Positions 9,440 through 61,993 of a stretch of 64,000 bases of DNA are shown piece after piece. The translations under genes and the position numbers were made by a program. How positions within the stretch are numbered: position 1 is the stretch's first letter; the number at the start of each line of letters is the position of its first letter. Origin of the DNA: Mobula hypostoma (lineage: Eukaryota). Under the pieces are notes generated by a model that was not told where the DNA came from, did not search any database, and saw only the letters and a list, made by a program, of their open reading frames with translations. The DNA lies in the NCBI RefSeq assembly GCF_963921235.1, contig NC_086097.1, positions 45,634,001 through 45,698,000 on the forward strand, given 5' to 3'.

Positions 9440-9925
9440 GCAACACATGCAAAATGCTGGAGGAAATCATCAGGTCAAGCAGCGTCTATGGAAATAAATA
9501 AACAGTCGATGTTTCAGGCCAAGACCCTTCTTCAGGACTGGAAAGGAAGGGGAAGAAGCCAGAATAAGGTGGTGGGAGAGGGGAAGGAGGGCAAGCTTGA
9601 AGAGATAGGTGAACTCTGGTGGGTGGGGGAGGAGAATGAAGTAAGAAGCTGGGAAGTGATAGGTGGAGAGAAAAAGGAGGAGGAGCATTGGTGGGAGTGG
9701 GAAAGTGGTAGGCAGGTGAGGAGAAGAGGTAAAGGGGAAGCCATAATGGGATATTGAAGAAGAGAAAATGGGGCAGGGGTAAAATTACTGAAGTTGGAGA
9801 AGTTAATGTTCATGCCTTCAGGCTGGAAGCTCCCCAGACAGAATATGTGTTGCTCCTCTAATCTGAGAGTGGCCTCATCATGGCAGTAGAGGAGGACGGT
9901 GATTGACATATCAGAATGGAATAGG
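9440..9925 (-). mobile_element. Penelope-like element 3' end / pseudo-LTR
   Basis: ORF 9532-9996(-) contains CHDEATLRLEEQHIFCLGSFQPEGMNINFSNF, homologous to the end of the GIY-YIG element at 46200-47416; same terminal repeat. Confidence 0.8.
9503..9540 (-). ncRNA. Putative minimal type-I hammerhead ribozyme in Penelope pLTR
   Basis: Minus strand reads CAGUC-CUGAAGA-AGGGUCUUGGCCU-GAAA-CAUC-GACUG: CUGANGA and GAAA cores, 5-bp stem I, AGG/CCU stem II, AUC cleavage triplet. Confidence 0.7.
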
Positions 9926-11263
9926 GATTGGAAACTTGATTTTGTTGCTGGTTCTGAAGGGATCTTTGAAATTATTGAGTCCAATAGGATGAACATGAGG
10001 AAAAAATTAAGCTGAGAAGGTATAAATTGTTCCTATCGAGTGGTTAAGATGAATTTTATAGACAAATTGAGAAGTTGTAAAAGGGAATAGAATATAATAT
10101 TGATAGGGTGAGATTCAGTAAGTTGAGAGGAGCCTCATTTAGAACATAAGCAACATGTGGATATCATGGGTTGAAAGATTTGCAGCTGTGTTGTGAATTT
10201 GTGTTCTAATTAATTTTTCACAAGCGTTTCTTTGTGGTTTATGTTTATGTGGAAATTATTTGGATTTTAACACCAATTGCACAAGGATAATGCTACTTTT
10301 TTACATCATTTTGAATCTGCTGTGCTGCTCAATTTTAAAGCTTCCACAGTTGTACTACTTTCTCCTCCCCACATGCACCAGTCTAATTACCTGTCTTAAC
10401 CTTATCTTCACATGACAATGATTCACCTGGAGCCTTAAACACACGGTGTATTTTTGTACATGTACAAAGGTGGCAATTAAAGCAAGGTTGTTTAACAATG
10501 GAGGTTGAATATGAATCAGTCTAGTATCTGTATGTACAGTCTCCAGGTGAGCATGGAGGAAAATCTCAATAATTTCTCCATAAACACCACAGCTGTTTGT
10601 ACTGAGCCGTTAGTACAACAAAAACGAAGATTAAACAAAATCATAAGGTAAATAGTCGAACTACTTTGTAAATTGAACACTTTAAGCATCTAAAAAGATG
10701 TATATTATTATGAAGAAATCATCCATACATTGATTTGAAGTCTGATTAGAGCATTTTCTCCAGAGGTCTGACATCAAGCACGTGAATGTCAATATTTTTC
10801 CTTGACCTTGGAGCCATCCTTAATCAATTTTAAAACATTGAATCTGAAAATACTCAGTGCATGGAGATTGTAAGTACAGCCAGTTATCTTAACAGTCATT
10901 AACAGTTATTTGATTATAAGTTTACAAATTAGTTCCAACATTTAAGCCAAATTGAAATTAATGATTAGTTTCTGCTGATAATTGGAAGGTTAATGGATTT
11001 GGAGCATGAATGAAACTTTGAGAGGTTCAAGCATGTGTGGCTAAATTTCTGTTCTGCAGAACTTAGTTCAGCCCACCCTTGGGTATCATGGTTTCTGAGA
11101 CATTGTAATTTTGAACAACTGTCTGCAGAGATGCTTTCTGTTTCTGAGTAAGTTCAGCTTCTAAGCTGATAACTATATCTGGACTAACGGCTTTAAAATT
11201 CCCCATCTCCTGCTCTCAGAAGACACCTACACCTAAGTGAATTGTTTAAATCCCGCTTAAGTT

Positions 11264-14200
11264 TAAGGGGCCTATCAGCAGCAGCAACTGAGCTCGATGA
11301 AGGAGTGCTTCTCGCAGGTCAGAGGCAGTTACTTAAAATGAGAGCTTCGAGGGCGTAGTTCATTATGTGGGGCCTATCAGCGGCGGCAACTGAGCTCAAT
11401 GAACTAAAAAGTACAGAAGGGAAAGGTGGAGCGGCTGTTGTCGGGAGTAGGTCAGTGGCAGGAGTAGAAGTGACAGGCTTTGGCTAATTCAGCCTTCAGC
11501 GAAAGTGGGAGTCGGCGAGGTAAGTGGGTAGGTGGACTTCGTTTTTGGTTTTTCTTTGCATTTTTTTTGAGGGCACGTTGGTAGGGTTAGTATTTTGCTC
11601 TGGGTGTCAGTTATGGGAATCTTAGGAATCTTCCAGTCTCCCAGATGGCCACATCTGTGCCAGGTGCACCAAGATGCAGCTCCTGAGAGACTGTGTTAGG
11701 GATCTGGAGCTGCGGCTTGATGACCTACAGCTTATTAGGGAGAGTGAGAGTTAGTCACCCTGAGGCTGTGGGAGTTAGGTAAGTGGGTGACAGTCAGGGG
11801 AGTGAAGGGAAGAGCTCAGATAGTAGAGAGCACTCTGTGGTCATCCCCCTCAGTAGTCGCTATCTCATTTTGGATGTATTTGAGGGGGATAACCTGACAG
11901 AGGACGACCACTGCGATCAGGTCTCTGGCACTGATCCTGGTTCCGTGGTGCAGAAGGGAAAGAGGAAGATGAGGAATGTGGTCGTCATAGGGGATTCATT
12001 AGTGAGGAGAAAGGACAGGAGGTTCTATCAGCCTGATAGAGATACCCACATGGTGTGTTGCCTCCCAGGTGCGAGGGTACGGGATGTCTCGGATCGAATG
12101 TAGAGTATTCTGAAGGGAGAGGGTGAACAGCCAGAAGTCTTGGTACACGTTGATACTAATGACATGGGTAGAAAAAGGGAGAAGGTCCTGAAGGAAGAAT
12201 TCAGAGAGTTAGAACATAGAACATAGAATAGTACAGCACAGTGCAGGCCCTTCGGCCCACAATGTTGTGCCGACCCTCAAACCCTGCGTCCCATATTAGG
12301 TAGGAAGCTGAAAAGCAGGACCTCAGGGGTAGTAATCTCAGGATTGCTGCCTGTGCCATGTGCTAGCGAGTGCAAGAATAGCATGATCAGGCGTATTAAT
12401 GTGTGGCTGAGAGACTGGTGTTGGGGGCAGGGATTCAGATTCCTGGATCATTGGGGAATCTTCTGGGAGAAGTATGACCCTGTACAAAAAGGACAGGTTA
12501 CAACTGAACCCAAAGGGGTCCAATATCGTAGCAAGCACATTTAATAGAGCTGTTAAGGAGGGTTTAAACTAATTTGTCAGGGGGATGGGAACCGAAGTGT
12601 TAGGGTTGAGGAAGGGGAAAACAGAAATAAATCAAAGGTAGCATGCAACAGAGATTATAGAAAGAACAGACAGGAGATGAGGCTTAATCACAGCCAGTGG
12701 CATGAGTTACAGGGCAATAGAGGCGTGGTGCAGTTAAAACAGAAAGCAACAAATACCGGACTGAAAGTGTTATATTTGAATACACGCAACGTAAGGAATA
12801 AAATGGACGATCTTGAAACTTAGCTGCAAATCGGCAAATATGATGTTGTGGCCGTCTCTGAAACTTGGCTAAAGGATGGCTACCATTGGGAGCTGAGCGT
12901 CCAAGCATATACGGTGTATCAGAAAGATACATTAGTAGTTCGAGGGGGTGGTGTGGCTCTGTGTATAAGAAATAATATTAAATCATTAGAAAGAGATGGC
13001 ATAAAGTGTAGAGTCCCTATGGGTTGAGTTAAGAAATGACAAGGGTAAAAGGACCCTAATGGCAGTTGTATGCAGGCCTCCAAACAGCAGCCGGGATGTG
13101 GATTACTAATTACAACAGGAGGTAGAAAAGACGTGTCAGAAAGACAATGTCATGATAATCGTTGGGGATTTTAACATGAAAGTGCATTGGGAAAACCAGA
13201 TTAGTATTGGACCTCAAGTGAGAGAATTTGTAGAATGTCTGAGGGATGACTTTTTAGAACAGCTTGTTGTTGAGCCACTAGGGGATCGACTGTGCTGGAT
13301 TGGGTGTTGTGCAATGATCTGGAGGTGATAAGAGAGCTTAAGGTTAAGGAACACTTAGGGAACAGTGATCACAATAAGATCAAGTTTACATTGAAATTTG
13401 AGAGGGAAAAAATAAAATCCAATGTGTCGGTCTTTCAGTAGAATAAAGGAAATTACAATGGCATGAGAAAGGAACTGACCGAAGTTGATTGGAAAGGGAA
13501 GTTTGCAGGAAGGACAGCAGAACAGCAATGGCTGGAGTTTCTGCAAAAAATGAGGGAAGTGCAAGACACATATATTCCAAAGAAGAAAAAAGTTTCTAAA
13601 GGAAGAGGACACTACTGTGGCTGACAAGTGAAGTCAAAGCCAAAGTAAAAGCAAAAGGGAGGGTATACAGGGAAGCTAGATCTAGTGGGAAGATAGAGGA
13701 TTGGAAAGCTTTTAAAAACTTGTAGAAGGAAACTAATAAGGTCATTAGGAAGGAGAAGATGAGTTATGAAAGGAAGCTGGTGACTAATATCAAAGAAGAT
13801 ACGAAAAGCTTTTTTAAGTACATAAAAGGTAAAAGAGAGTTGAGGGTAGATATGCGACCAATACAAAATGATGCTGGAGATATTGTAATGAGAGATGCAG
13901 AGATGGCAAAGGAACTGAATGCGTATTTTACATCAATCTTCACAGTGGAAGACATCTGCAATATACCGGACATTCAGGAGTGTCAGGGAAGTGAAGTTTG
14001 TGCAGTGAAAATTACGACTGAGAAGGTGCTCAGGAAGCTTAATGGTCTGAGAGTGGATAAATCTCCTGGACCTGATGGAATGCACCCTCTGGTTCTGAAG
14101 GAAGTAGCTGGAGAGATTGCAGAGGCATTAACAATGATCTTTCAAGAATCAATAGATTGTGGCTTGTACCGGATGACTGGAAAATTGCAAGTGTTACTTC

Positions 14201-15638: not shown

Positions 15639-15899
15639 TAAGTTGTGCATTTTTAACTGCTAATGTACTTCCAAATTCAGAAACTTCTGTTTGTAAAATT
15701 GCTTTACAAATTAGGAACTTAAGGCAGAATTTTGACATCAGCATCACTCTTAAATATCTAAGTTCCAAAAAGATTTTCTAGTTGATTCTTATTTATTCCT
15801 GAGAGTTTTTATTTATTGCTGAGAATTTTGTGCCTGCAGTCGGTGCTTTTAATTGCATTAAGCTTCCAAATGTCTGCTAGTATGTTGATTATTTCTGTC

Positions 15900-16410
15900 A
15901 CCAAGATGAAGCTCGATGCAGATTAGAGGATCAGCAACTCGTATTCTGCCTTGGTAGTCTCTAATCTGACAGCATCAACATTAGTTTCTCTAATTTCTAA
16001 TAACATCTCCCCTTTGTCGCTCTCTTTATCCCCTTACCTCACTTACCCCTATCACACCCTCTTTCCCCTCCACTCCCCTTTCAATCTGCCTATCACTCCC
16101 TCATTCTTCCCACCGACTCCCCTCTTCACCACTGTCCTCTCACAATGGATTTCATCCTCTTTATCCCTTTGTTACTTCCATGTATCACCTATAAACTTCT
16201 AACTTAACACTCATTTCCACTCCTCGCCCCCCATCTGGATTCGCTTATTGCCTGCCAGCTCCATGCCCCCCTACCTTTTTATACTGGAACAAAAGTCCCT
16301 CTTTCGAGTCCTGATGATAGGTTCTGACCTGAAACATGACTGACCATCTCTGTAGACGCTACCTGTTGCCCAGCTTGTTTGGGTCCTCTGGAATCACCTC
16401 CATGTGTTGA
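15900..16410 (+). mobile_element. Penelope-like 3' fragment with degenerate hammerhead (16307-16341)
   Basis: RLEDQQLVFCLGSL-like C-terminus, pyrimidine-rich spacer, then AGUC-CUGAUGA-UAGGUUCUGACCU-GAAACAU-GACU (one base short at the cleavage site). Confidence 0.7.
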
Positions 16411-19184
16411 AATGTCAGAACTGGGGCTGGTTATGAAGGGAAAGGCCAGCACTTCTCTGATACTTGCTGCTATTTTCCTGTAAAATCCAGGATAGTGGCT
16501 TCAGTTTTACATCAGCAAGCACTATGGATTATAATTCTGATTAGGCTTCCTATTTGGTTGAAAGTCAGTGTTCCAAAGAGAATTTACCAACTCTTTCACT
16601 AGTCTGAATTAAGCTAGAATTTTTCAAAGTTGTTTGTATTGATATCTAATTTTACAGTATACAATTACTGTAGATGTCTCTGAACCAGCATTTTTGGGAA
16701 ATGAATCTATTATTTCAATGGGTGAACATATAGAATGTCATTACCTATTTGCATCGACAGTACTTTATTAGAATATTGTCTAAACATGGTATCTCAAACC
16801 CCTTTTACATATATAACAGGTTTAAGGAATTTTAGAATTCAGTATTTTTAGAAATGCAAAGGTGCTTACACAAAAATCTATATTTATTTTTATCAACTTT
16901 TGATAATCGGGGAGATCAAGGTTTTTAGGGAAGTTCTGAAATAGTGTGACACACAAAGTGATGGTCACACTTTTCACATTGATCAAACTTGTTAACAAGT
17001 GAAAACACAGCAGCATGAATTGATTTTACATAGCAAGATAGAGATTTTTATCTTTAACAACATAAAACTATTTTTTCCTAAACAAATGAGTGAAAGTTGA
17101 TATCAATTTGCGGGATGAAACTCTAAATGTAATTCTTTACAATTGATTGTATTTTTCCTCAACAATTGATTATGTGCGGTGAAAAGCAGAATATTTGTTT
17201 GGAAAGGTTGCCTTTCTAAAGGTCGCTTCATTTGCAGGATATATTTGTTTCACATGGAATCTGCTTTATCCAATTACATAACCATGAAGTCTCCTACTGC
17301 TGGTATCAATTATAAGAATGCTGTAGTAAGCATGTTGCATGGAGGTTTCCAAATAAATAGAGAATTCCTTTTTTAGTGACATTTTTCTCAACTGAAATTT
17401 TTCTGCATTATTATCCTGGTGATTTCACAGCCCTTACAATTCATTTATTTAGGACAGAGAAATTTTAGATGATAAGCTTTTCGCTGTTTATAATATTGTA
17501 TTATTAACACCAACTTGGGTACAAATAAATTAGAATGAAATTTACAGTATAGAGTCAACTTGCTCTTGATTGTAAAAGCCTTGATCGGCACTCACTCAGC
17601 TGAAACTTTGCAGTACATGAGCGGCAATACCAGTACTTTTCATTTATATCCTGTTTTAAATTCATATCCTTACCCTTGTAGCTGTGGTAACTTGTTTGTT
17701 ATTTGAAGGGATCACCAGCTTCATTGGGGAAGTGGCTTTGATCCTGGTTTAAATTTCAAATCTTTTCTAGACAGTTGCTGATGCAGCAAATAAACTGTCT
17801 ACTGAGAAAGCACAACCTGGCTACCTCAGATAGATATCACTATCAGCCTTTTGTATTTATTCTGATCCTACTGTTTTCATTTGTCTGTAGCAATGCCTAA
17901 GTTAAAGCCTGTGAACTTTGCTCTGACGTGTACATTATATTGCAAAATTGTTGCACTTAACAATTGTAAATGTGCAATTCTGGTCATAAACCTTTGCTTG
18001 CTCATACGCTTGTCATTCAAGTGTAAACTTCAACATTGAGTGTTAGTTCTGTAGCAATGCAAGCTACAGTGATGCTGTTGCATTTACCATCGGGAGAAAG
18101 AACCTGAAAGTACTTGAGAATTTGTCTATGTTCATTTCTTACCTTCATTTGTAAAATGAGGAGACTGAGTCCAGTTCTCCAAATATCCTTCTCACAGCAT
18201 GCCCTTCCAATTGCTATCACCTGCAAACATGGATACCTATTTCTTCAGATCCTTATTGTAGATTCAGCAAAACTCTTAATACTCCACTTTCCAACTATTT
18301 GGAAAATCTAGCAGTTCATCTGAACCGTCATGCTCTGGTTTCCATGCTGTCTTTCAGTTTGCTCGTTCCCTGGATCCCAAGCATTCTTGCCTGATCTCCC
18401 ATTCTTCTGTTCCCTTTCATCTCACCAGCTTCAATGGAAAATTTGCCATTCTGCTGTGTAACTACTTTTCTAAAAGGTGAACTAAGAGTGTGTTGGAGTA
18501 TTAAAAGAATGATGTCAGATAGTCTGGAAAATTAACATGTCTGGCACCACTATATTCTAGAGCACACCTCATTAATGAAGTTCCCCTGTAATAAATCATT
18601 GAGGATCAAGGGCTGATCATTGGGGTGTACATTATTAGTTGCATCTTTCCTGTCTGAAAAAGACCTACTCAATCAACTCTCTGACTTTGATGTGATCCCA
18701 TTCATCCAGATTGGCGCACTTGGCAATGCCATATGTTCTTGTGCGCAAGCCTTCTATGTGGCATCAAGTGCCTTCAGGAAATCCAAATGCATTAAGTTGG
18801 CAGGTACCCCTCTTTCAACTCTACATGTTATATCCTTGAACTCTTTAAAAAAATGATTAAACGTAATTTTTTTGTAAAAACATTAGTGACTTGATACAGT
18901 TAAGCTTCTCTAAATGATTCGTTATTTCTTCCTTGATTATAGACCCCAATGTCATGCCAACAATTGATAATAAACTAACTGACCTATAATTTCCTGCACT
19001 TCCTCCTCTTCCCCCCCTCCCCCACCCCACCCCGAATAAGCTCTCATATTCGTGGTTTTCATTGGTGCCTTCCGGGAAATTAGAGGAGCTGTAAGCCATG
19101 TGCTGTGATCTCAGCTGCTCTCCGACTCTTCGACCACATGCTTACCCAGACCCGCTATGATAGCCATGTATCCTGTATCTTTTT

Positions 19185-19405
19185 CACCATTCAACCTCCC
19201 AGCTCTTTGCTTCATCCTTCCCCTCCCAGTTTCACCTATCACCTTGTGTTTCTCTCCCCCTTCCCCAACCTTTTAAATCTGCTCCTCATCCTTTTTTCTC
19301 CAGTCCTGCCAAAGGGTTTCGGCCCACAACGTCAACGTCAACTGCCTGACCTGCTGAGTTTCTCCAGCATGTGTGTGTTGCTTGGATTTCCAGCACCTGC
19401 AGCTT
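19185..19405 (+). mobile_element. Penelope pLTR fragment
   Basis: cagtcctgccaaagggtttcggccc...ctgcctgacctgctgagtttctccagcatgtgtgtgttg; same family as 9440-9540, ribozyme core mutated. Confidence 0.7.
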
Positions 19406-20826
19406 TTTGTTCTAAACCTCTTGGGTGCGGAGCATTGGATACTAGTGACTTTTTTGTCTTTAGTTCCATCATTTTTTTTTCTAATAACTTGTTCCTTTTG
19501 AGAATGTTATAATTTCTTCCTTTCTGCTTAAAACTAGCCCATCTGTTATGTGTAGGATGTTTGCAGTGTCTCTCAGAGTGAAGACTGTTATGAACTATTG
19601 GTTACCATTATGTGCCCTTTCCTCATTTCAGGCTATTAATTTCCTCAGTCTTAGTTTCCTGGAGACCCATACTTATAAAACCTGTTCCTTTTCAAAAAAT
19701 ATATCCACTGAAGCTTGCTTTGATGTTATTTGCAAGTTTGCTTGCATAAGCAATTTGCTCCCCTTGTGAAGTTTATAGTCTTATGCTACTGGTTCCTGAA
19801 AAACTCCTAATCTCTAATGCTTTGGAATATTCAGGATATTTCTGTTATATTTCTCTGGAATCCTTTTTTATTCAGTATTTTCATTGACTGCTTTCATTAA
19901 TCATGGGCCATTCATCTCTGTCACAAAGTCCCTCTTTCTGCTGACGATCATGATATAAAATATCTGCCACTGACCCTTTTACCCTATTTTCAAAGTCCAC
20001 TCTGGACAGCTGTTCCTTCAAACCTTGGCTATTGCTCTTTTTAAAGGCAAGGGCACTGAAACCTGAAGGACAATTGTTCCAAAAATGTGAAATCTGGGCA
20101 CAACAGCTGTTTCAAATTTCACTGATAAGGATTCAATGAAAAGAATGCTTGAAAGGCTTTGTAAATGTTGTATGGAAAAGAAAGCTCCCTTGTAATTCCA
20201 CTCGTGATTGTTGCAACATTCATGAGGCTACCAGCATTCATTAACAGAAAAAATGATTTTCCACCACGTGAGGATATATTTTCAATGCGGGTTCATGTTA
20301 CAGCCAGTGTTCTTTTTACACTCAATTCCTGCCTGCTTTTGTATTGCAGCAGAACAGTAAAGCTCCCATAATCTGCCATGCTCAGGATTTTGATAGTACT
20401 GGACGAGCAGGTTTTCTAGACCATTGGATGTTAATCTTTTCAATACACTTTTAATTTTTTTCAGTGGTTCAATTTAATATCAGAGAATGTATACAGTATA
20501 CAATCTGAAATCCTTACTCTTCGCAGACCTCAACAAAAGAGAGAAAAATCCCGAAGAATAAACGACAGAAAACCATTAGTACCCTCTCCTGTATACTCTA
20601 GCAAAAGCATCAACCCCCATCCCCACCATGCAATAGCAAGCCCCTGGAGATCATGATCTAGAGTTTATCAAAAACTACTGTCCAAACCAACATTTCAAAA
20701 GGCTGTCTCTCTCACTAGAGGGGGAGAGAGTCATCGCTCCTGCCACAGCAAGAGGGGAGACCAAAAAACTCACTGTTTTGATGTTACTATCTGCAGCGTC
20801 ACTTATTCGAGTTCCCCAACTCGAGA

Positions 20827-20940
20827 ATCAGTAAACTCTCTCTCACCATTGTGTGTGTGTGTGGGTGAGATATATATATCTCACACACACACAATGGTGA
20901 GAGAGAGTTTACTGATAGAGATATATATATATATATACTA

Positions 20941-21005: not shown

Positions 21006-21039
21006 TCATTTGAGAGCAGAGGCCTTCAATAGCCGCGCC

Positions 21040-21575
21040 CACAGAGGTTGGCTGGCGTTTACAGGATTCCCTGTGAATGTGGAACAGCACATATCGGCAG
21101 ATGGGACACACGGTGGAAACCCACATCAAGGAGCACAGGAGGTGTATCCATTTGGGTTACCCAGAGGAATTGGCGGTAGCAGAACACTATTCACAATAGC
21201 CATAGGATTGACTGCGATGGCACAAAACTACTGTGCTGCGCCAGCGGCTTTTCAGACTGCCTGGTAAAGGAAGCTATTGAAATAAAACTGGAGGAAAAGA
21301 ATTTTAACAAAGATAAAGATCTCACTCTAAGTAAGAACTGGAATTCAATTGTAAACAAGGCGAGTGAGCGGAAACCTGATTGGATGAGGACTAACCAATT
21401 GGGAGGGACGGACTATGGGGATGTAAATACCACTGACTAGGCATACCCACGCATCATCCCTGAAGAAGATGGCAGAGTTTGTCATTGAAACGTCAGTTAT
21501 AATCGATAACTGTACTTGGCTGGAATCCCGAGAAGAGTTTATTTGTCATGTAGGCTAGGAAAGCACTAGATCTTC
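21040..21575 (+). mobile_element. Second Penelope family: GIY-YIG endonuclease remnant plus pLTR with hammerhead core (21460-21494)
   Basis: GVYRIPCECGTAHIG from 21054, then LVKEAIEIKLEEKNFNKD, then CUGAAGA-a-GAUGGCA/UGUCAUU-GAAACGUC. Confidence 0.8.
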
Positions 21576-22030
21576 TTTCATGAGAAAGAAAAGTTTCTGA
21601 AGTGGATTTGTATTTTCTTTACAATCGTTGTAGCCAGTGTCACTGATAAGTTAAAACTCAGTGACATTCTGTAACCTCCAAATTCCTAAGTAGCAGGAGC
21701 TTAAGATTTTTCATATAACCCATCATTTAATAAATACTGGCATTTAGAGTATATATCTTAATGTGCCTCAGTTTCACTATAATATTTTCCTAAAACAAAT
21801 ATCAACTTGCTAATTTGCAAAGTTTATTTAATTGTTTTTACAGAGAGAGGGCAAGCTGAGGCAGGCATTTGTAGGTAAGATAGCAAACTGAGTGAACTAA
21901 TCTGGTACTTGCATAATTACATGTAAACTCAATTAAAATGTGCACAGAATTGCATGATGGTTGAGTACTGTTATTCATTTATGTCTATATTTGTGATATT
22001 AAAATAATTTTTTTTAATTTTTATTTAAAG

Positions 22031-22172
22031 CCACTGGGAACACAACTGATCAATGTTTATTGTAGCCCCAATGACCAGATGCTTTGGGCCATTGACAATC
22101 GTGGAAATGTGCATGTTCGAATTGGAATAACAGAAGCCATGCCTGTAGGAACTAATTGGGAGCATGTGCCAG
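22031..22172 (+). CDS. TECPR2: TECPR2 coding exon (3rd from last; not in the ORF track)
   Basis: T-rich acceptor ...tttaaAG and donor GTaaaa; 142 nt, phase 0 to 1. Encodes PLGTQLINVYCSPNDQMLWAIDNRGNVHVRIGITEAMPVGTNWEHVP(G). Confidence 0.96.
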
Positions 22173-24065
22173 GTAAAAGTAGAAATCATTTATCCCATAA
22201 TGTAACTGTAGTTCTTAGTTACTTCATCTGTCATCTATATCAAATCTAGTAATGTTGTGTCGCAGTAATTTTTGGAGAACATGTTTGACAATCTCTGGCA
22301 CAATTTTCCTCGAGTAGAATTTGTCAAATTATCATCCAGACCACTTCACAATTTGTCTCCCTAATTTCTTTAGGGTATTTGATTCCAAACTACCAGATGA
22401 TCTGTATGCCTTACTTTTATGTGATATTAATGCCATTCCCTCCAGTTTCCTCTGATTCTACAATCCGTTACCAACTACAGGGGCTTGCTAGGTCACAAAT
22501 GACTTGACTTGTATAAATCTGACGTTATACATATTCTCCCAAAAGTATTTTTTAATTTAGTAATAATGAAATGTTTCATGGTGTTTATTAATAAATGGAT
22601 GTAGTGTATGTTCCATCAGTTTAACTATTGATAGTGTCAATGAAATGCAAAAATTATAGCAAGTATACCTAGAAGGATAGAGTATGCATTACACAAGAAA
22701 ATGGCATTTTTGAATTATGGAGAAATCAGCTAACAGACAGTTCTCAGGAATGGAACTCTTGTGTAACCCAGGGACTGCCTGTACTATGAGGCATGATACC
22801 AATGGTGAAAACCCAGTAAGTCAGGCACATTTATGGAAAAAGAAACAGAATTAATGTTTTGAGTCCAAAACACTTTGTCAAAACTGGCCAGTTTTGATAA
22901 AGTGTGAGACATGAAACAGTAACTTTCCCTTTTCATAGACCAGCTGAGTATTTCCACCATTTTTCTATTTCATTTCAAATTTCCAGCATTTTTGTTTAAT
23001 TTTAATGATACTTTTAACAGTTTTACCATTACCTCGCCCTCCACTGTAATATCTCCAGCATTATCTAGCAAGAGATATATCTTTACTACAGCATCGTGCT
23101 AAATTGTATTTTCAGGCAACTAATTTTTTATTTACATTTCTTCTTGGCCCTTAGATTCCCATTTCACATAATTATTCTGAGTTGTTATTATCTACCATGT
23201 AAATGCCATCTCTTTTAATGTATGTTCTTTATCCAGAGCTTCAGTATTTTGTTTCCTTTAATGAACTGTTCATGAATTTTATTACATCCAATATCTATTT
23301 GAATATTTCCTCATAGTGATCTAATTCTGTTGTTTTTAATTACATTCTGGACAAGATTCCTTTTCTTTCCGTTTTTTTTCTCTTCTTGTGCACTCTCTAA
23401 TTTTGATTTAAAAACTCTTTTTCCCAAATATCTCGTGATTATTACGTTGCCAACTTCCCCTGCTTTCTTAAACAAAAGCAAGTTAAATTGTACTTCCTCC
23501 TCCACTGAAATGCAGCTGGAGGTTGATCAATAAAGATAAATGATGTTTTTAAGGAATGATTTAAATAATTGGGTCAGCAGGAGGAATTATCTGCTCCTTG
23601 GTGAGTTTGTTTTGGTTTCAGAGTTTCTTCCACAAATCCTGCAATATTTAGAAAGGCTCTAAATATAAACCAGTAAATTCTAGGCCAGTGAGACTGACGT
23701 CAGTTGTGGGAAAGTTGTTGAAAGGTATTCTGAAAGAGTCCGGATATACAAATGTTTGCATAAACTTGGACTGATTAGGAATAGTCATTTTTTTGTGCAT
23801 GGTTGGTCATGTCTAACAAATCTTATAGTTTTTTGAGGAAGTTACCAGGAAAGTGGATGAAGAGAAAGCAGTGGATGTTGTCTACATGGACTTTAGCAAG
23901 GCATTTGACAAGGTCTCACATGGGAGGCTGGTCAAGAAGGTTCAGTCACTGACCATTCAAGATAAGGTAGTCAATTGGATGAGACATCGGTTTTGCGGGA
24001 GAAGTCAGTGAGTGGTGGTAGATTGGGTACCTCTCTGACTGGAGGCTTGTGACCAGTGACTGATG

Positions 24066-27685: not shown

Positions 27686-27823
27686 TCGATGGGAGCAGGT
27701 AGTTTACATGGTTTTGGCATGGATTAGGTGGAGTGAAAGGTCTGTTTCTGGGCTGTACTTTTCTATGACTAATGAAAATCTGCTTTAATATTGCAAACAA
27801 TATCTTGTCGAATTTTTTTACAG

Positions 27824-27973
27824 GTTTGCAGGCAAGTCAATTAACTGTGAGCAACAGAACAGTTTGGGTCCGTTGTTCTAATGGGGACATAGCACGTCGT
27901 TATGGAATAACGAACAAAAATCCTCCAGGCGATTATTGGAAAAAAATTCCCGGCAATGTGGCTTGCATAACCG
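27824..27973 (+). CDS. TECPR2: TECPR2 penultimate coding exon
   Basis: Acceptor ttttttacAG and donor GTaagt; 150 nt, phase 1 to 1. Encodes (G)LQASQLTVSNRTVWVRCSNGDIARRYGITNKNPPGDYWKKIPGNVACIT. Confidence 0.96.
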
Positions 27974-31109: not shown

Positions 31110-31229
31110 AACAAGAGAAAATCTGCAGTCACTAGCAATCCAAGCAACAAAATGCTGGAGGAACTCAGCAGGCCAGGCAGCATCTATGGAAAAGAGTACA
31201 GTTGATGTATATAGTTCGGGTCTCTTTAC

Positions 31230-44439: not shown

Positions 44440-44880
44440 ACCACTATGGTCACCCAGTCACAGGAAGGAAGTGGATGCTTTTGGAGAGAGTGTGGAGAAG
44501 AGATTTACCAAAATGCTGCCTGGATTAGAGAGTGTTAGCTATAAAGAGAGGCTGGGCAAACTTGGTTTATTTTCTCTGCAGCACTGAAGGCTGAAGGGAA
44601 ACCTGACGAGAATTATAAAATTGTGAGAGGTAAAGACAGGTTCCTGTCTTTTTCCCTGGGTAGAAACGTCAAATATTAGAAGACATAGCTATAAGAACAT
44701 GGGAGGTGGGTAAAGTTTAAAGGAGATGTGCAACGTAAGTTTTATACACAGTGACAGGTACCCAGAAGGGGCTGCCGGAGGAAGTGGTGGAAGTAGACAA
44801 AACTGAGGCATTTAAGAGCTGCGTGCATAGGCAGGGAATTGGGGGATATGAATCATGTGTTGGCAAATAGATTTGGTTTA
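44440..44880 (+). mobile_element. CR1 3' fragment
   Basis: LWSPSHRKEVDAF..RFTKMLPGLESVSYKERLGKLGLFSL. Confidence 0.8.
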
Positions 44881-46199: not shown

Positions 46200-47416
46200 A
46201 TCGGTAGACAGTTTGTCTCCAAAGATGGAGGCAGAGAGACTGAGGAACCTGTCTCTTGTAAAAATGATATACTGTACCCTTTCTCAATTCCTTTGTCTAC
46301 ACTGCATTGGTTCCCAGGATGAGGCTTTCCTTTCCAGGACATCAGAGATGCCTCCTTCTTCAAAGAATGGGGTTTCCCTCCCTCCATTGATGCTGTCCTC
46401 ACCCACAGCTCCTCCTTTTCCCAGACATCACACTCACCCCATCTTGCTGCCACCTTAACAGGGATAGAGTTCCCTTTGTCCTCACCTCCCACCCCATGAG
46501 CCTCCCCACCAAACACATACTCTGCAATCTCCACTGTCTTCAATAGGTCCACTACCAATCATTTCATTATCTCCCCACTCTCTCAGCTTTTTGCAGAAGT
46601 CGCTCTCTCCATAATTGCCTTGTCCATTCGTCCATTTTCACTAATCTCCCTCCTGGCACACATCCCTGCAAGTGACAGAAATGCTACACCTGCCCATTCA
46701 CCTCCTCCCTCCCCTCCATTCAGGGCCCCAAACAGTCCTTCCAAGTGAGGCAACACTTCACCTGTGAATCTGTCGAGGTCACCTACAGAATTCGGTGCTG
46801 CCAATGCCACCTTCTGTACATTGATGAGAGCCAGCATAAACTGGGGAACCACTTTGTCGAGCATCTCCAATTCATCTGCAAAAAGCGGTATTTCCCGTTG
46901 GCCAACCGTTTTAATACCTATCACCATCCCTGTTCTGAAATGTCAGTTCCTTGGCCTCCTCTTAATGAGACCGCTCTTCGGGTGGACAAACATTGAGGTA
47001 GCCTGCAACCTGCTGGCATGAGTATCGATTTCTCCTTCCGATAATTTGTTTCTCACCTCCTTCCCTCTTCTTCTATTCTCTTCTCTGGCCCCTTGCATCT
47101 TCACCTCACTTGCCTATCACCTCCCCAGTGCCCTCTCTCCCATGGTCCACTCTCCTTTCCTATCAAATTCCTTCTTCTCCAGCCCTTTGTCTTTTCCACC
47201 AGTCACCTCCGTACTTCATTTCTCCTCGCCCACCCACCCGGCATCACACATCACCTTCCAGCTTGTCCTCCTTCCCCTCCCCTCACCTTCTTATTCTGGC
47301 ATCTTCTTCCTTGCCAGTCCTGATGAAGTGTTGTCAGCCTGAAACACTGTCTGTTTATTCATTTCCATAGATGCTGCCTGACCTGCTGAGTTCCTTCAGT
47401 ATTTTATGTGTGTTGT
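46200..47416 (+). mobile_element. Penelope-like retroelement (RT C-terminus, GIY-YIG, pLTR), decayed
   Basis: FQVRQHFTCESVEVTYRIRCCQCHLLYIDESQHKLGNHFVEHL is a degenerate GIY-YIG motif; pLTR with CUGAUGA..GAAAC at 47320-47345. Confidence 0.85.
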
Positions 47417-48599
47417 TCATAGTCTAAAGGCCAAGAATAGTCAATCAGAACCCAGTGATCTATTAGTAAGCTGCAGCCCAGAAAGGCAGCCATGGTAACA
47501 AACAGGTGCTCACTTGATGTTTTTCAAATAACGTATTCCATGACATTTTAAATATTTATACAGCGGGGAATCTGAGCTTATATGAAAATAGAAAGCTATT
47601 TATCACCCTGTTCTTTGGAGTGTTATCACTAAGAACTGGGATAATTTGTAATTAACATCTCTCAAGGTTGACGGGCATTGGTTAATGTCATCTATGACTC
47701 AAATGCCAAATTATGTTTCAATTATGAGAGCACAATTAGAAAGCGTTCACATTCTTTTTGTATGAGCATATTTCTAATGAAACTATAAGTAGTCTGACTG
47801 TTAAGCTTATAAACATAGTAGTTAATTTTATCTCCTACATTTTTTAAAAGACCAGGACATGCAGAAATTTGAGGGAATTGTCTCCTGTTGCAATATTTCC
47901 ATGAAGTGAGGTTGCTGGGTTTAAGTTACAACAATCATGCGAGTTTACTTTAAGCTCCTGCTGTACTTTGTCAAGCCGACTAGTGCCACACCTGCTTTGT
48001 TCATTCATTCTTACTCACTGGCATTGAACCCCTTCATCTCCTTCAGTTTCCTCATCCAGCTGATTTACAACTTGTAAAAGGAAGTACAGACTCTATGGAC
48101 ATCTCCCATGGTTTTCTGTGGCCCCAGCTCAAGCTGTCATCTCTCCAGGAGACAGTGGGAGGCTGCAGGTGTTGGAAATCTGAGTAATACACAACATGCT
48201 GGATGAACACAGCAGGTCAGGCAGCACCTATGAAGGGAAATGTCGAGACTGATGAAGGGTCTCATCCTGAAATGTTGACTTGTCTCTCTCCACTGGAAGC
48301 TGGCTTTAAATCCACAACAAAATGCAGGAACTATTGTCTCAGCTGTAGAAATAAATGACAGTAAACACTGGCTACATCTGCCACATTTTGTACAGACATT
48401 CATGGGAAGCATTTTGTAAATCAAAAACACTGGGCAAAGTGCATTCTAGGAATGTTGGGTTTATATTTACCATGCATAGATAATGGTGTGTTATTCATCA
48501 TAACAAGAAATAGCTTTGTAAATTAAAGACACGCACACCTCCACCTGGACAGTGTCGTAAACAAACTTACAAAATCATCTCTGAAGAAACTCAAACCAT

Positions 48600-49271: not shown

Positions 49272-51021
49272 TGTTATGTTTTGTAACTTCAAAACACTAA
49301 ATTAATTCAATGAAAAACATGAGAGTCTGGGATTTGCAAGTTTAACTTCGAGTTTACTTTAAGTGAGGCATGATCGTATATCACTTGGTAGCTTTGACAT
49401 GGACAATTAAAATATTTTTACATGTAACCAGTAATTAATTATTTAAACAAAGAAGAATGCTCAAATATTATTGAAATATTAAATACACAACACTTTTCCC
49501 TGCTTAGCTATAAACTCCAACTCAACAGGGTAATACATCTTAACTATATACACAGTCTACTGTATAATACTATGTAGACATCAATAGCATAGTAAATTTG
49601 AAATTGTCCCATTCAGACCTAAAGACTTAACTGCTGTGGGGGATTTCTTACTCTTGTGTGATATTGTCTTTCCTGACAAGGTGGGGGGTGGGTAGGGGGT
49701 CACTCTGCTTGGCAGTTGAGACTTGTGGCTGTGAAATAATCTCAAGTTCTGGGGCCTCCCCCGTGGTGGTTGTAGGAGTTGACTCTGGGACTGCAGGAAG
49801 TGGTTCTAACAGTAGTAGCCACTTTTCTTCCTTTCCTGCTACTAGTTTGTGCACCTTGATCTTGGGAAGGTGCATTTAGTTCAATGGAGCATTCTCCTAT
49901 TAATCCTTCTATTACTCCTTTTACGATCTGATCTCTCCTCTTGGTTTCCTCATCTACAATATCATCTGACAAATCTTCTGTTTTCACATCTCCACTGCTT
50001 CCTTTCTTTTTGGTCTTCCATTCATCCAGCTGGGCTTTGGTCTTTGCAGCTACCTTTGCAAGCAGCTTTTTGTCTCCCACTTGAAGTTCGTGCAATAACC
50101 TTAATGCATACAGAGTAGATGCTGGTTCTTTATAGTCACAAAAGCTGAATGCTTTCAACTTCTGCGGAACTCCTTGAACTCTCTTCCTGCTTAAAACCAA
50201 GCCGCATTTCACAAATAACTGCCTGATTGACCTATCAGAAGCTTCCTCAGATACGTTGCCTACAAAAACTGTAGGAGTCGGACCAGTGCTTTTGTCATGT
50301 TCACGATTCCTCTGAGCAGCATGGGCCCTTCCTCGGTCCAATACGCTTTCCAGCCAGAGGATCAGAGATTGGCACCGTCACCTGTTTGTCCTCTGTTGAG
50401 CAATGGTTCATTGTGTCTGACATGGAGGTAGTTCTCGCATCATCCACTACTTCTCTTAATACTCTTTCAGTTGACTTTTTTGCAGGGGATGGATCTCCAA
50501 ATAAGTTGTAGTTGTCTCAGCCAATCACGGCCTCACTATGCTGGTCCTTCTGTTTTTACCACCTACAAGCTCAATGTGGCTTGTTGGTTGTTGTATTTCA
50601 CTGTCACAGATAACATTCTCACAGGAGTTCTCTTTCTTCCAGTATAAGTCCTTAGTCGGATATCTGAAGGTTTCAGTTTAGTGTCTTTGAAATGCATCTC
50701 AAACTCGTGACTGGCACAGCTGAACCAGTGTCTAATTCCATTTTAATTAAATTGCCGTTCACTTCTGGTGTAAACCATATTGCATGTCTATTGTTAATCT
50801 TCACATTGTAAATCGCAAGGCTACATAATCCGGTATCACTCACCCCATTATCAGGTTTTTCATCAACAGTATGCAAATTAGTGCTCTTTCTGAAACTGCA
50901 AATAGACTTTTTAACATTTTCTCTTCCCTATACAGATCATTTATTTTTGTCTGTCTGGCATACTCTTTGTACATGTCCTACTTTGTTGCATTTTCTGTAA
51001 GTTTCACCTTTAAATCTGCAC
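49272..51021 (-). mobile_element. Non-autonomous Gypsy-type LTR element: gag knuckle, protease, captured RBM25 segment, integrase tail, PPT, 3' LTR
   Basis: LTR TGTT..AACA at 49272-49492, with purine tract GGGAAAAG adjacent on minus. Gag CRFKGETYRKCNKVGHVQRVC at ~50958-51020; protease MELDTGSAV..LRTYTG..GRDWL at ~50500-50780; integrase-like tail ending ERQYHTRVRNPPQQL at ~49625-49820. Confidence 0.85.
49823..50381 (-). pseudogene. RBM25: Processed RBM25 fragment (RRM and following helix) embedded in the LTR element
   Basis: GPTPTVFVGNVSEEASDRSIRQLFVKCGLVLSRKRVQG..KAFSFCDYKEPASTLYALRLLHELQVGDKKLLAKVAAKTKAQLDEWK..DEETKRRDQIVKG..ELNAPSQ is colinear with recalled human RBM25. No introns; one frameshift near 50330. 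Confidence 0.9.
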
Positions 51022-55000: not shown

Positions 55001-56699
55001 CTTCTCACAAACATAGAAAGCAGCAACAGAATAGAGTGTGCATCACCAAAACCGGCCAAGTTCTGAATATGTAAACCAGCATGGGAATGAACTTCTCAAC
55101 TCTCTAGCTGCTCCAAATGAACTTACCCATGGATGCCCACTCAAGGAGTTGATGTTAAATCTTCTCGTGTAGCACTTCATCGTGTTAAATGGGATCAAAC
55201 TGATCTGGCAGCTTAAAGCTGTGCATCCATGTAGCAGTAGACTACCTCCAGCAGCAGAAACGTAGAACATTACAATTTGTAATGTCATGGCTTAGCTTAT
55301 GCCCGAATCATTTGTCACCACGCTCAGAGTGCCATGATGGCTCGATCTGGCATTCTCCTGAGATCCCCACCTTTGCAGTTTTTAGTCAATTCAATTCTTT
55401 CCATATGACAGTAAGAAACTATTGACAGTCAGGATGCAGTAAAGGCTGAGAGACCAGTCTGTGAGAGCCCAACCTGTAGATTTGAAGATATCTGCTCCCA
55501 AACCTGTCACACTAGCCAAGCTGTAATTGTTATAACATTGACATGTACCCAACAATGTAGAAAATTGCTCAGATATGTCGTATTCACAATAAGGCAGGAC
55601 AAATCCAATCTGGCTAATTATTGCCTAATTAGTCTGTTCCCAGTCATCAACAAGGTGGCTGAAGGTGTTGTCAATAGGACTGCCAATTAGCACCGAGAAA
55701 CTGTTCAGTTTGAGTTTTATCAGGACCACTGGGTCCAAACAATTCCAGAAGCAATGTGAGGGTGACTGTTCTTGGTATCAAGGGTGCCAACTGTTTTTTG
55801 GCAAATTTGACAAAAGCATCAAGTTGCCTGAGGGAACCGAACTCAAAGGGAAAACACTGCAATGGCTGGTGTCATACCTCACAGAAGGTTCAGCACATAA
55901 TCTCCTGCAGGAACTCAGCAGGGTTTCTAATGCATGATCTTGACCTGAAATGAAGGCAACTTCTTTCCCTCCACAGATGCTGCTTGGCCCACTGATCTCC
56001 TCCACCCGATTGGTTGATTCTCCAGATTCCAGTATCTACTGTCTCTTGTGTCTCACACAAAGGAAGATGAACTGTTGGAGCTCAATCATCACAGCTCCAG
56101 GCAATCACGCAAGAATTTGTCAGGAGGAGTGTTTTATGCCGAACTATCTTCACCTGTTCATCAATGATTTTGATCCAAAAGTTGAGATGTTTGTTGACTG
56201 CACAGTGTTCAATTCTAGTTGCAGCTCTTCAGCAAATATAGGAGAACACCCCTGTGAGTAATCATTCCAATAAGTGCCAAACAACTTTAATGAAACAAAT
56301 TATCACACCAGTCTTCTCCAACAAGGGAGAGTCTAACCATTCACCTTTGACTTTCAATGGCAAGACCATTGCCAAAACCTCAAACATCAACATAGTGGGG
56401 GTCACTATTGACCAGAAATTTCCTCGGTAATGTCTCTGAATAGTGAAACAGCGATTCAAGTATTGTGTTCACAAGTACAGGACAGAGGCTGGTTATGTCA
56501 GGATAAATGACTGACTTCCTGACACCCCTAGAAGTTTCCACCATCTATTGGAATACTCTCCATCTGCTTGATTGAGCGCATCACCGAAAACACACCAGGT
56601 CAAAGGAGCAAATTTGACTGCCACTCGTTCCATCACTCTAAACATCCACTGCCTTCCATCCACTGCGATCTGAAGCTGCAACAGAGCCATGGAGACTGA

Positions 56700-58099: not shown

Positions 58100-61000
58100 G
58101 AAGCAAAAGAGAGAGCAAATATTACAAAAAATTAGTTGGAAGGTAAAGGATTTAGAAGCTTTTAAAAACCAACAGAAGGCAACTAAAAAGCCATAAAGAG
58201 AGAAAAGATGAAATACGAAGATAAATAGTCAATAATACAAAAGAGGATACAAGACTTTTGACAAGATACCAGACAAGAGACTGCTTAACAACGTAAGTGC
58301 CCATGGTATTACAGCAAAGAGTGAGAGTAGAGAGAGCCTATTCTGGTTGGCTGCCAGTGACTAGTGGTGTGCTGTAGGGGTTGGTGTTGTGTCCGCTTCT
58401 TTTCACATTATGTGTCAATGATTTGGATGAAGGAATTGATGGCTTTGTGGCCAAGTTTGCAGACAATACGAGGGATAGGTGAAGGGGTGAATAGTGTTGA
58501 AGAATCAAAGAATCTGAAGAAAGGACTTGGACAGATTGGCAAAATGGGCAAAGAAGTGGCAGGTGGAATATATTGTGGAGAAGTGTACTTTGGTAGAAGG
58601 AATAAAGGCATGGACTATTTTCTAAATGGGGAGAAAATTCTAAAATCAGAAGCACAAAAGGACTTTGGAGTCCTTGTGTAGGATTCCCTGAAAGTTAACT
58701 TTGCAGGTTGCGTTGATAGTAAGGAAGGTGAATGCAATGAGAGCATTTGTTTCTTTCTTTCTTTTTAAATCTTTTTATTGAGTAAGTATACAAAAAAGGT
58801 AAGCCATATAAACATTAATACAATGTTAAAGTATAATAAAATTCCAAAAGATAACAATACCAAAAAGAAAATACTACAATGTAATTTAAGCATAAGAAAC
58901 CAAGATAACATAATAATATACTAAGTTTTATATATATCAATGGAAAAAAAGAAAAAAAAAAACCCCAAAAAAAACCCACCGTGCAACTAACTAAAAGCAA
59001 GGCAAAGCAATGGGCTAACTTGAAACCAAACAGAGTTAAACTTAAAATCACGTCCTCAATCCCGACCTCCATTAAAACAGTGAAAAAAAAACAAGAAGGG
59101 TAAATATTACATTAAATGAAAATATCGAATAAAAGGTCCCCAAATCTGTTCAAATTTAAATGAAGAATCATAAAGGTTACTTCTAATTTTCTCCAAATTC
59201 AAACATAAAATCGTCTGAGAAAACCAAAAAAAGGTAGTTGGAGCATTAAGCTCTTTCCAATGTTGTAAAATACATCTTTTCGCCATTAAAGTAAGAAATG
59301 CAATCATTCTACGGGCTGAAGGGGAAAGATTACTAGAAATTTTAGGTAGTCCAAAGATAGCAGTAATAGGGTGAGGAGAGATATCTATATTTAATACCTT
59401 AGAAATAGTATTGAAAATATCTCTCCAAAAAGTTTCCAAAGTAGGGCAAGACCAAAACATATGAGTTAAAGAGGCTATCTGCCCCGAACATCTATCACAG
59501 AAAGGATTAATATGCGAGTAAAAACGCGCTAACTTATCTTTGGACATATGTGCTCTATGAACCACTTTAAATTGAATTAGGGAATGTTTAGCACAAATAG
59601 AGGAAGTATTAACTAATTGTAAAATCTGCCCCCTATCATCCACAGAAATGGTAAGCCCCAATTCCTGTTCCCAATCTACCCTAATCTTATCAAATGGAGC
59701 TTTCCTAAGTTTCATAATAATATTATAAATCATAGCCGATGCACCTTTCTGACATGGATTAATGCAGTTAAGATGTTTTTTTTGCCAAAATTTTTATATG
59801 TGTTTCAGGCATTACCAATTTTCGTTCCTAAATCTTTTTTTGATAAAGTTGACTCTAAAATTTCTTCATTTATTTGGCAGAATAAGAATCCGAGACTGGG
59901 TAAAATACATTTACAGAAAGCTAAGAGAGATGGAGGTTTAGCGTTACCTAATTTTAGATTTTATTATTGGGCTATTAATATTCGACATATGAAATTTTGG
60001 TTACTTGACCGGGACATACTATCTATTCCTAAATGGGTAGCATTGGAATTACAATCTGTTCAGGGTTATACACTTGGTTCTATTTTAGGTTCCTCTCTTC
60101 CTTTTGATTCGAAACGCCTTAAGCAGGTCTCTAACCCGATAGTTAAATATGCTTTGCGCATTTGGTTTCAATTCAGAAAATTTTTTGATCTTAATCAATT
60201 CGGGTTAGCGATTCCTATTTTAGGTAACATATTTTTTCCTCCCTCTTTTACGGATCGCGCTTTTCAAACTTGGAAGACTAAGGGTATTTTACGGTTTTTG
60301 GACTTATTTTTAGATGGTTCCCTTATGTCTTTTGAACAATTATCTAATAAATATAACTTATCAAGAATACATTTTTTTAGATATTTACAAGTTAGAAATT
60401 TCCTAAGTACTATACTTTCTTCCTTTCCAATGCTTCCTCCTATATATATTTTAGATTCGATAATTAACCTTAATCCATGTCAGAGAGCATTTGTTTCGAA
60501 AGGACTAAAATACAAAATTAATAATGTAATGCTAAGTCTTTATAAGGTACTGGTCAGATCACACTTGGAGTATTGTGCAACACTGGACCCCTTATCTCTG
60601 AAAGAATGTGCTGGCATTGGAGAGGGTCCAGAGAAGGCTCACAAGAACGGTCCTAGGAACGAAAAGGTTATCAGATGAGCAGCTATTGAAGGCTTTGGGC
60701 TTGTACTCAGTGGAATTTAGAAGAATAAGGGAGGATCTCATTGAAATCTATTGAATGCTGAAAGGCCTAGATAAAGTGGATGTGGAAAGGATGTTCCATA
60801 TAGTGGGGGAGTCTTTGACCAGAGGGCACAGCCTCAGAATTGAGGGATGTCCATTTGGAACAGAGATGAGGAAAGATTTATTTAGCCGGAGGATGGTGAA
60901 TCTGTGGAATTCATTGCCACAGCCAACTGTGCAAGCCAAGTCATTGGGTATATTTAAGGCGGAGGCTGATAGATTCTTGACTAATCAGGGCTTCAAAGGA

Positions 61001-61115: not shown

Positions 61116-61637
61116 AATTCAAGAAGGTGACTTACTGCTACATTCTGAAAGGAAATCACAGGAGGGCAACAAATTTTGGCCATAACTAGTTAATTATGTG
61201 AAGACACTTATAGTTTTGGCAATGGCCTGAAGTGTTTGTTGGAAAGATTTCTACATTGACGCATGTTGACGCATACATTTTTGCAAGCTGATACACGGTT
61301 AAAGATAAAAACAAAGGTTATCTCTTTGGTGATAGCTGCTGTTAGGACCAAAAGTTTACATAAGTGAATCTTTTAAAATATCTTTGGTTGCTTTTATAAA
61401 GTTGATATGAAACTGAGAACATAATTTGTGATGTACTTCACTCGGCTAAACTTAATGAGAAAATAATTTGTAAGATGTTCGCTTAGCTATTACCTAAGTT
61501 ACACAGCAGACTTCATCATATGTACATACTCTTAAATCATAAAACATTAATATTATTTATCGCACATGAAGCTTGGTTTCTGTGCAGTTTACGTTAACAA
61601 GGCCCTCTGCAACATCCCAACACGTATGACATTGAAG

Positions 61638-61746
61638 CAACACACATCAAAGTTGCTGGTGAACGCAGCAGGCCAGGCAGCATCTGTAGGAAGAGGTGCA
61701 GTCGACATTTCAGGCCGAGACCCTTCGTCAGGACTAACTGAAGGAA
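61638..61746 (-). mobile_element. 109-bp Penelope pLTR insert with hammerhead core (61700-61735) and 16-bp TSD
   Basis: TSD acgtatgacattgaag at 61622-61637 and 61747-61762. Minus strand reads AGUC-CUGACGA-AGGGUCUCGGCCU-GAAA-UGUC-GACU. Confidence 0.85.
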
Positions 61747-61845
61747 ACGTATGACATTGAAGTGATTTCTAATTCAATTTTTAAAGTTTCCAGAATACCC
61801 AGCAGGCAGATGGACATTGTATTAGGCTGAGTTGGAATTCAGCTG

Positions 61846-61993
61846 GAAACAAACAAGAGAAAATCTGCAGATACTGGAAATCCGAGCAACGGTCCTGCCA
61901 AAGGGTTTCGGCCGGAAATGTCGACTGTAGGTGCTCTTTGCCTAGTTGTTGCCTGGCCTGCTGAATTCCTGCTGCATTTTGTGTGTGTTGCTC
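61846..61993. mobile_element. Inverted-arrangement Penelope pLTR mini-element
   Basis: pLTR pieces in both orientations, flanked by ggaattcagctg at 61834-61845 and 61994-62005. Confidence 0.7.

Follow-up and report, generated by a model that had tools for sequence, protein, structure and literature searches.

Penelope-like retroelements carry minimal hammerhead ribozymes, described in 2014, when coelacanth and Xenopus were reported to have 4,000-9,000 such motifs (PMC4209133). In that work Cervera and De la Pena reported no cleavage of the minimal monomer and low cleavage of dimers, and for the Poseidon element of the lizard Anolis carolinensis Frangieh et al. reported cleavage only with protein and core mutants without effect on insertion (PMC11167929). 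Inverted partners, 30-40 nucleotide (nt) tails and solo copies are also already published (PMC4209133, PMC11167929, PMC8557442). Here we analyzed a 64,000-nt stretch of the genome of the cartilaginous fish Mobula hypostoma (contig NC_086097.1, positions 45,634,001 to 45,698,000; hereafter the window, numbered from its first letter), from which a sequence-only reading had inferred that the genome holds a large, probably unannotated population of such ribozymes from at least two Penelope families. We put the probability at about 0.85 that the hammerhead motifs of the window have been carried along, and have decayed, within 5'-truncated copies of two Penelope-like retroelements; the template was likely RNA with a still uncut hammerhead, and the motifs are likely inactive today.

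The motifs are similar to the published minimal hammerheads (PMC4209133) in being of type I, in having no loop 3 and a palindrome at positions 15.2/16.2, and in having an unpaired base between positions 9 and 10.1, with a G10.1-C11.1 pair in the least decayed copies; as in that report, where the motifs were found in the fish elements Xena, Poseidon and Neptune, most are solo copies and some form opposite-strand pairs. On the other hand, stem II of the main family in the window (family A) has 4 pairs compared with 7-8 in Schistosoma, and the density of 14 loci per 64 kb would extrapolate to numbers well above 4,000-9,000, although the counts in that report include descriptor-passing motifs only. 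Family A shares with the Neptune-type endonuclease-positive (EN+) elements (Craig et al. 2021, PMC8557442) a reverse transcriptase (RT), a cysteine linker and a GIY-YIG endonuclease at the C-terminus, as well as truncation, inverted partners and the 30-40 nt tail, but it is present here only as broken 3' remnants. Anolis Poseidon, as described by Frangieh et al. 2024 (PMC11167929), likewise shows two 3' ends past the hammerhead, AT-rich flanks and copies with an uncut site, whereas the second family of the window (family B) ends 49 or 78 nt after the cut site and has a predicted extended helix I. The non-LTR (long terminal repeat) retrozymes (bioRxiv 10.64898/2026.07.22.740005) are alike in their type I hammerhead, their Penelope origin and one chondrichthyan positive, but their definition requires tandemly repeated units that each contain a motif, and no copy in the window is tandem. 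Motifs of this kind were thus already described in 2014, and the difference lies in the host lineage, the little-studied cartilaginous fishes: two of the supplement files of PMC4209133 contain no shark, skate or ray name, and a literature search, which did not extend to the supplements of the 2026 preprint, returned no report of Penelope hammerhead motifs in rays or sharks.

We scored 12 motifs in the window, position by position, against the full pattern of stem I-CUGANGA-stem II-GAAA-NNUH-stem I. This scoring supported the minimal type I architecture proposed by the sequence-only reading. Hammerhead-like letters are indeed present at all six sites where that reading saw the pattern recur, but the full pattern stands at only two of the six (9503 and 61700). 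The whole core is kept in 4/12 motifs (9503, 21460, 48249 and 61700), and the core together with stems I and II in 2/12, as follows:

9503-9540, minus strand: minimal type I hammerhead motif with intact core, stem I of 5/5 Watson-Crick pairs and helix III ACAU
61700-61735, minus strand: best-kept minimal hammerhead motif with intact core, stem I of 4 Watson-Crick pairs and one G-U pair, and helix III AUGU

Stem II of the former has 4 pairs including a G10.1.U11.1 wobble, which is also found in the latter, and the cut is predicted between 9508 and 9507 and between 61704 and 61703, respectively. A self-complementary Watson-Crick helix III is absent from both of these otherwise intact copies, AUGU permitting a wobble homodimer only, and no intact same-strand tandem pair is present in the window. 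That the motifs are a population of working ribozymes is not supported. The other four sites are defective in various ways: at 16307-16340 (+) the unpaired base 17 is missing and the NUH triplet fails; at 21460 (+), which belongs to family B, the core, ACGU and a 7-pair stem II are all in place, but stem I is broken at its first position (C.A); 47315-47352 (+) carries U16.1C, reads ACAC rather than ACAU or AUGU, and has one mismatch each in stem I and stem II; and 48249 (+) keeps the core but lacks the 5' strand of stem I because the copy begins at an inversion junction. The three sites regarded as degenerate copies in the earlier reading (~19301, ~37154 and ~61892) proved to be genuine members of family A by profile search. 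The relic at 19301 has changed at A6C, G8A, G12A and A13C and nonetheless reads ACGU in helix III, that at 37154 has lost the 3' half of the motif, and that at 61892 carries A6C and G8A.

The matches might instead be chance look-alikes. The core plus NNUH without a stem requirement occurred 4 times in the window against a shuffle mean of 0.64, a count matched by 2/300 shuffles. Nine stretches folded as single strands were none of them better than their own shuffles (z -0.6 to 1.2), as expected because the motif is so small; the minimum free energy fold of 9503 displays stems I and II, yet its z is 0.14. The Rfam search of the window gave 21 matches at E<=10, none of them to a hammerhead family. 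When stem I of at least 3 pairs was required, however, 2 sites were observed, compared with a mean of 0.027 over 300 dinucleotide shuffles, none of which contained more than 1, and with 0 in 40 local Markov shuffles, and every site lies at one position of a repeat family linked to a Penelope open reading frame (ORF), a shared context that already refutes chance. We therefore give chance practically no weight. The Rfam result bears out the guess that these hammerheads are unannotated, and it means that the Rfam search proposed for finding them would miss such motifs. A relaxed descriptor scan of the window gave no third family. In a covariation analysis of 13 rows, in which stem II of family B was misaligned, 5/9 pairs changed on both sides, with a score reached by 17/500 shuffles and a pair count reached by 118/500; the first stem I pair was C-G in 4 rows and U-A in 4.

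The repeat context was defined with a family A profile (nhmmer) built from 12 window pieces, which are themselves among its 19 matches. These 19 pieces occupy 14 loci at E<=0.01 and are 64-95% identical to the majority sequence, while the reversed window gave none (best E 0.65). Together with family B, which has one copy in the window at 21460 and is high-copy in two species, they uphold the earlier claims of at least two families and of large numbers. The loci are listed below, those unnoticed by the earlier reading being marked as new:

9439-9918, minus: 3' fragment with the endonuclease C-terminus (9918-9778), pseudo-LTR, hammerhead and short 3' end (tblastn with proteins P0002/P0003, 66-71%, E 7e-16; nhmmer)
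15893-16365, plus: 3' fragment with endonuclease remnant 15893-15997 and relic 16307-16340 (tblastn, profile)
19168-19409, plus: fragment with the relic at 19301 and a long tail (profile)
22809-22988, both strands: new; old head-to-head pair, both arms starting ~10 nt before the core, first stem I pair U-A and not C-G (profile)
31109-31222, minus: new; 3' piece beginning inside the hammerhead, long tail (profile)
32077-32130, plus: new; tail-only piece next to a TG/TA microsatellite (profile)
37148-37231, plus: old relic, the earlier reading's 37154 (profile, E 0.01)
39786-39949, both strands: new; head-to-head pair joined within stem II and flanked by a 10-nt direct repeat, 39783 / 39945 (profile)
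44876-44978, plus: new; piece beginning right after the hammerhead, long tail (profile)
46239-47419, plus: longest remnant, with broken RT-thumb, zinc-finger linker, GIY-YIG frame 46282-47035, pseudo-LTR, relic 47315-47352 and short 3' end (tblastn)
48159-48292, both strands: head-to-head pair, plus arm from C3 (48249), minus arm complementary to the tail of the 47k copy (profile)
55849-56050, both strands: new; old head-to-head pair with decayed core (profile)
61638-61746, minus: 109-nt insertion (hammerhead and short tail) within 16-nt target duplications 61622-61637 / 61747-61762 (direct repeats)
61850-61993, both strands: separate head-to-head unit with long tail on minus (61850-61890) and relic 61892 on plus, 12-nt direct repeat 61834 / 61994 (profile)

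The proposed Penelope origin is supported by the ORFs. Three family A copies extend upstream into an RT-thumb/GIY-YIG reading frame (tblastn), the hammerhead sitting ~250-280 nt downstream of the GIY-YIG frame, and the family B motif follows an endonuclease remnant. The frame at 46282-47035 matched at 50-52% over ~215 amino acids (E 2e-51), and the translation of 46679-46993 matched three ray proteins at 54-63% identity. Family A has 715 protein relatives at E<=0.001; among 5 long ones scanned against Pfam, 4 matched RVT_1 and GIY-YIG and the fifth GIY-YIG only, several scores being below the Pfam cut-offs, and the long relatives with both RT and GIY-YIG align to window positions 46430-47035. 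The window's own endonuclease remnants went unrecognized in the Pfam scan. A cysteine linker (C-x-x-x-C-x-x-C), reported as a mark of Neptune and Nematis when it precedes a C-terminal GIY-YIG (PMC8557442), is present in family A between RT and GIY-YIG. Family A thus appears to be a Neptune-type EN+ element, an assignment made by the linker, which Nematis shares. Penelope-derived coding pieces also occur in three public gene models of rays that bear the names mucin-2, DIPK1C and WDR64-like (P0001, P0003, P0004), probably by mis-annotation or exonisation.

The same anatomy was found in a distant relative, which supports the placing of the motifs in Penelope-like copies. One locus from a genome collection (L001, 43-1330), on a contig that was binned with a bacterial genome but is probably animal host DNA, is a Neptune-like Penelope element (49% protein identity). 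Its parts follow one another in the same order, and its core (at 1242) and ACGU are intact, with different stem letters. Metagenome contigs, scanned by pattern and by protein, and viral contigs, scanned by protein, gave no match.

Family B is represented in the window by a single copy, and the 21460 motif has no relative elsewhere in it:

21045-21572, plus: 3' fragment with frameshifted GIY-YIG remnant ~21045-21365, pseudo-LTR, hammerhead and 3' ends 21543 / 21572 (translation; homologue P0004, 62%)
21445-21520, plus: hammerhead with core 21460-21494, 7-pair stem II, ACGU, broken first stem I pair and predicted distal helix I (contig alignment, scoring)

The hammerhead lies ~95 nt downstream of the endonuclease remnant, the only protein-coding part of this family known here. 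No cysteine linker is seen in the ~13 residues before its GIY-YIG motif, and its endonuclease letters appear to resemble those of Poseidon; the family is likely of Poseidon type. When public contigs were aligned to 21020-22300 (13,141 from run X3, which may be the source sample, and 13,409 from run X10, a second species), family B proved to be high-copy in both species, with a summed contig depth of 78,861 at the motif compared with 16 in a single-copy intron, although depth is not copy number. The family majority letters are known at 40 of 160 differing positions, the others being assumed unchanged; those at 21445, 21450 and 21509 each convert a mismatch to a G-C pair, so that in the distal helix I (21445-21455 with 21505-21520) 10/11 positions pair in the family majority compared with 7/11 in the window copy. 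Helix I of family B is thus predicted to be longer than in the bare minimal motif, and the window copy would have lost three of its pairs. A perfect 6-pair hairpin stands directly after the cut site in the window copy (21495-21511) and competes with this distal helix. The majority letters also form a TATA-like box at 21422-21429, ~30 nt upstream of the 5' edge of the hammerhead, which would place a transcription start close to the motif. From runs X1 and X9, which may be of RNA, 648 and 462 contigs were aligned, and they show neither strand nor ends; in one X9 contig (21465-22058) the cut site is preceded by 30 letters, a single letter below the bridging threshold. Just upstream of the family B copy, at 20826-20917, TG/CA and CT/AG microsatellites form a near-perfect 90-nt inverted repeat, which attracts spurious microRNA matches below the Rfam cut-offs.

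The ends of the copies carry the marks known for Penelope insertions. The two species share the family B contig ends 21543 and 21572 (X3, 207 and 210 contigs; X10, 195 and 197), lying 49 and 78 nt past the cut site, and beyond these points the contigs are unlike each other and AT-rich. In family A the 3' ends, which are alignment ends and therefore approximate, fall at profile columns 117-126 (5/19) and 141-156 (9/19), the other 5 being decayed or cut short. Two 3' ends ~30 nt apart, both downstream of the cut site, are thus common to the copies; the 30-40 nt tail has been tied to two internal reverse transcription start sites (Frangieh et al., PMC11167929), and EN+ Penelope-like elements have been reported with truncation, inverted partners and such tails (PMC8557442). 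Five family A units are head-to-head. Three units lie between direct repeats, with lengths of 16, 12 and 10 nt (rates by chance of 0.00005, 0.0003 and 0.004, respectively), while at 10/15 units searched a direct repeat of at least 8 nt was absent. Two 3' ends, head-to-head pairs and target duplications of 10-16 nt are all known marks of Penelope insertion. We dropped an 11-nt repeat at 32045/32129 as a target duplication, since it is microsatellite-like, and 61700 and 61892 are ruled out as arms of one element because each has its own direct repeats.

The short units might instead belong to a non-autonomous family resembling short interspersed elements (SINEs) or retrozymes, transcribed and mobilized as hammerhead-plus-tail RNA. 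The 109-nt unit with its 16-nt duplication has the look of such an element, retrozymes are reported to derive from Penelope repeats and to occur in one chondrichthyan (bioRxiv 10.64898/2026.07.22.740005), and 6/19 family A pieces begin between the core and ~15 nt upstream of it, too few for a test. However, the 5' ends otherwise range from 1.1 kb upstream to within the tail, three copies continue into the ORF, and the profile matches include no tandem arrays of the unit, making this origin improbable.

By analogy with Anolis Poseidon (PMC11167929), the 5'-truncated copies would arise as follows: the element's endonuclease would nick the DNA, the reverse transcriptase would start 50-110 nt downstream of the ribozyme, at either of two internal sites, and copying would run through the motif, mostly stopping early and sometimes adding a second inverted arm. 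Among the 19 family A pieces there is no class of 5' ends at the cut site, and a copy having sequence on both sides of that site must come from uncut or re-ligated RNA. In the parent, the tandem transcript may be cleaved slowly as a dimer through ACGU, aided by the element's protein (PMC4209133, PMC11167929). After insertion the copies would drift, and to the host they look like inert repeat debris.

In a window of 40% G+C with a CpG observed/expected ratio of 0.30, the 15.2/16.2 letters of family A are CA in 6, TG in 5, CG in 1 and TA in 1 of 13 copies, which suggests an ancestral CG. ACGU is kept at 19301, at 21460 and in L001. The view that helix III shows CpG-decay variants of one palindrome accordingly stands for 11/13 family A copies, but the ACGU at 21490 that had been taken as its original form comes from family B, and 47315 reads ACAC. 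Core letters depart from the majority at 15/125 positions (12.0%) and tail letters at 64/447 (14.3%; Fisher p=0.56); selection after insertion is not clearly evident in this small sample.

Several points weigh against the copies being mere passengers. When G8 and G12 are set aside, core letters depart from the majority somewhat less often than tail letters (8/102, 7.8%, vs 14.3%, p=0.10), so a weak constraint may exist; two copies (9503 and 61700) do keep core and stems; and the profile seeds were chosen with the motif in view. Moreover, the window holds no complete element and no tandem pLTR-ORF-pLTR (pLTR, pseudo-LTR) unit within its 64 kb, and the copying steps proposed above are borrowed from the lizard element.

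It is also conceivable, though we think it unlikely, that the parent keeps the hammerhead fold for a non-catalytic role or can dispense with it, cleavage playing no needed part in spread. For Anolis, core mutants are reported to have left in vitro insertion unaffected, and the report describes no RNA-seq reads ending at the cut site (PMC11167929); the window copies, too, span that site. Position 11.1 is U in most of the complete copies (TG in 7/13), but this is an ordinary CpG product, and the core and ACGU are conserved across families A, B and L001 despite differing stem letters. The copies at 19301 and 61892 have in common A6C (19306 and 61895), a change with low activity in a natural phage ribozyme variant (PMC3088659) that is reported to prefer Mn2+ (PMC7151607), together with one stem II loop change. 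This might suggest a subfamily that spread with an altered core, but it is a lead only, because the informative changes in common number just two, and among 93 pairs there are 8 others with at least as many shared non-majority letters.

A further question is whether solo copies act today as ribozymes that cut host transcripts, such as the pre-mRNA of TECPR2, via dimers; several copies lie in the introns of that gene. The host genes concerned are the following:

~8955-9158, 22028-22195, 27823-27972 and 33404-33568, plus: last four TECPR2 coding exons (protein comparison)
42573-43487, plus: ankyrin-repeat ORF, presumably ANKRD9 (Pfam scan)

The queried TECPR2 exon is 100% identical to the Mobula protein cluster and 93-96% identical to other batoids. 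Two copies keep core and stems, and ACAU and AUGU are mutually complementary. Nevertheless, the three sense copies with a core in the TECPR2 introns (16307, 19301 and 21460) are all defective and the intact 9503 is antisense, numbers too few to speak of a bias. The intact pair, 9503 and 61700, lies 52 kb apart without a Watson-Crick homodimer helix, and its co-folds favor misfolded duplexes by 11-15 kcal/mol, for which reasons the relics are likely inert. Minimal monomers are, moreover, reported as uncleaved (PMC4209133).

Two separate insertions, 47360-47411 and 48180-48244, are predicted to form a long RNA hairpin on the plus strand downstream of the ankyrin-repeat gene. In a plus transcript this hairpin would bring 47315 and 48249 together (mean pairing probability 0.83): the 47315 tail is predicted to pair with the inverted arm 48159-48244, setting the intact 47315 core beside the intact 48249 cut site, where the opposite CpG-decay forms would give a helix III of 3 pairs and a stem I of 4 pairs, stem II being weak. 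The hybrid, however, lies 16.6 kcal/mol above the minimum, and its pair probabilities are <=0.002. Working solo copies are therefore very improbable, and it is extremely improbable that separately broken relics rebuild one working ribozyme by complementation (47315 core with 48249 cut site) in the way the model pairs them.

With decayed Penelope-like passengers as the likely content, the window extends Penelope minimal hammerheads to a cartilaginous-fish genome, where they occur at high density (14 family A loci within 64 kb) and escape Rfam. A genome of this sort is well suited for asking whether cleavage matters to Penelope mobility, and likewise at which points reverse transcription begins and ends; neither question is answered by the window itself.

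The window has other features besides. An intronless frame on the minus strand (49742-50377) matches Pfam RRM_1 and, we presume, resembles an RBM25 retrocopy. Two repeat fragments (5698-7258 and 58793-60678), which we take to be L1/Tx1-like, have segments 79-94% alike, one of them inverted between the two. A Tc1-like transposase remnant lies at 30113-30712 (+), with a weak DDE_3 match (E 0.083), and at 36575-37012 five copies spaced 75-76 nt (151-nt period) stand inside a repeat that resembles the tail of a long interspersed element (LINE).

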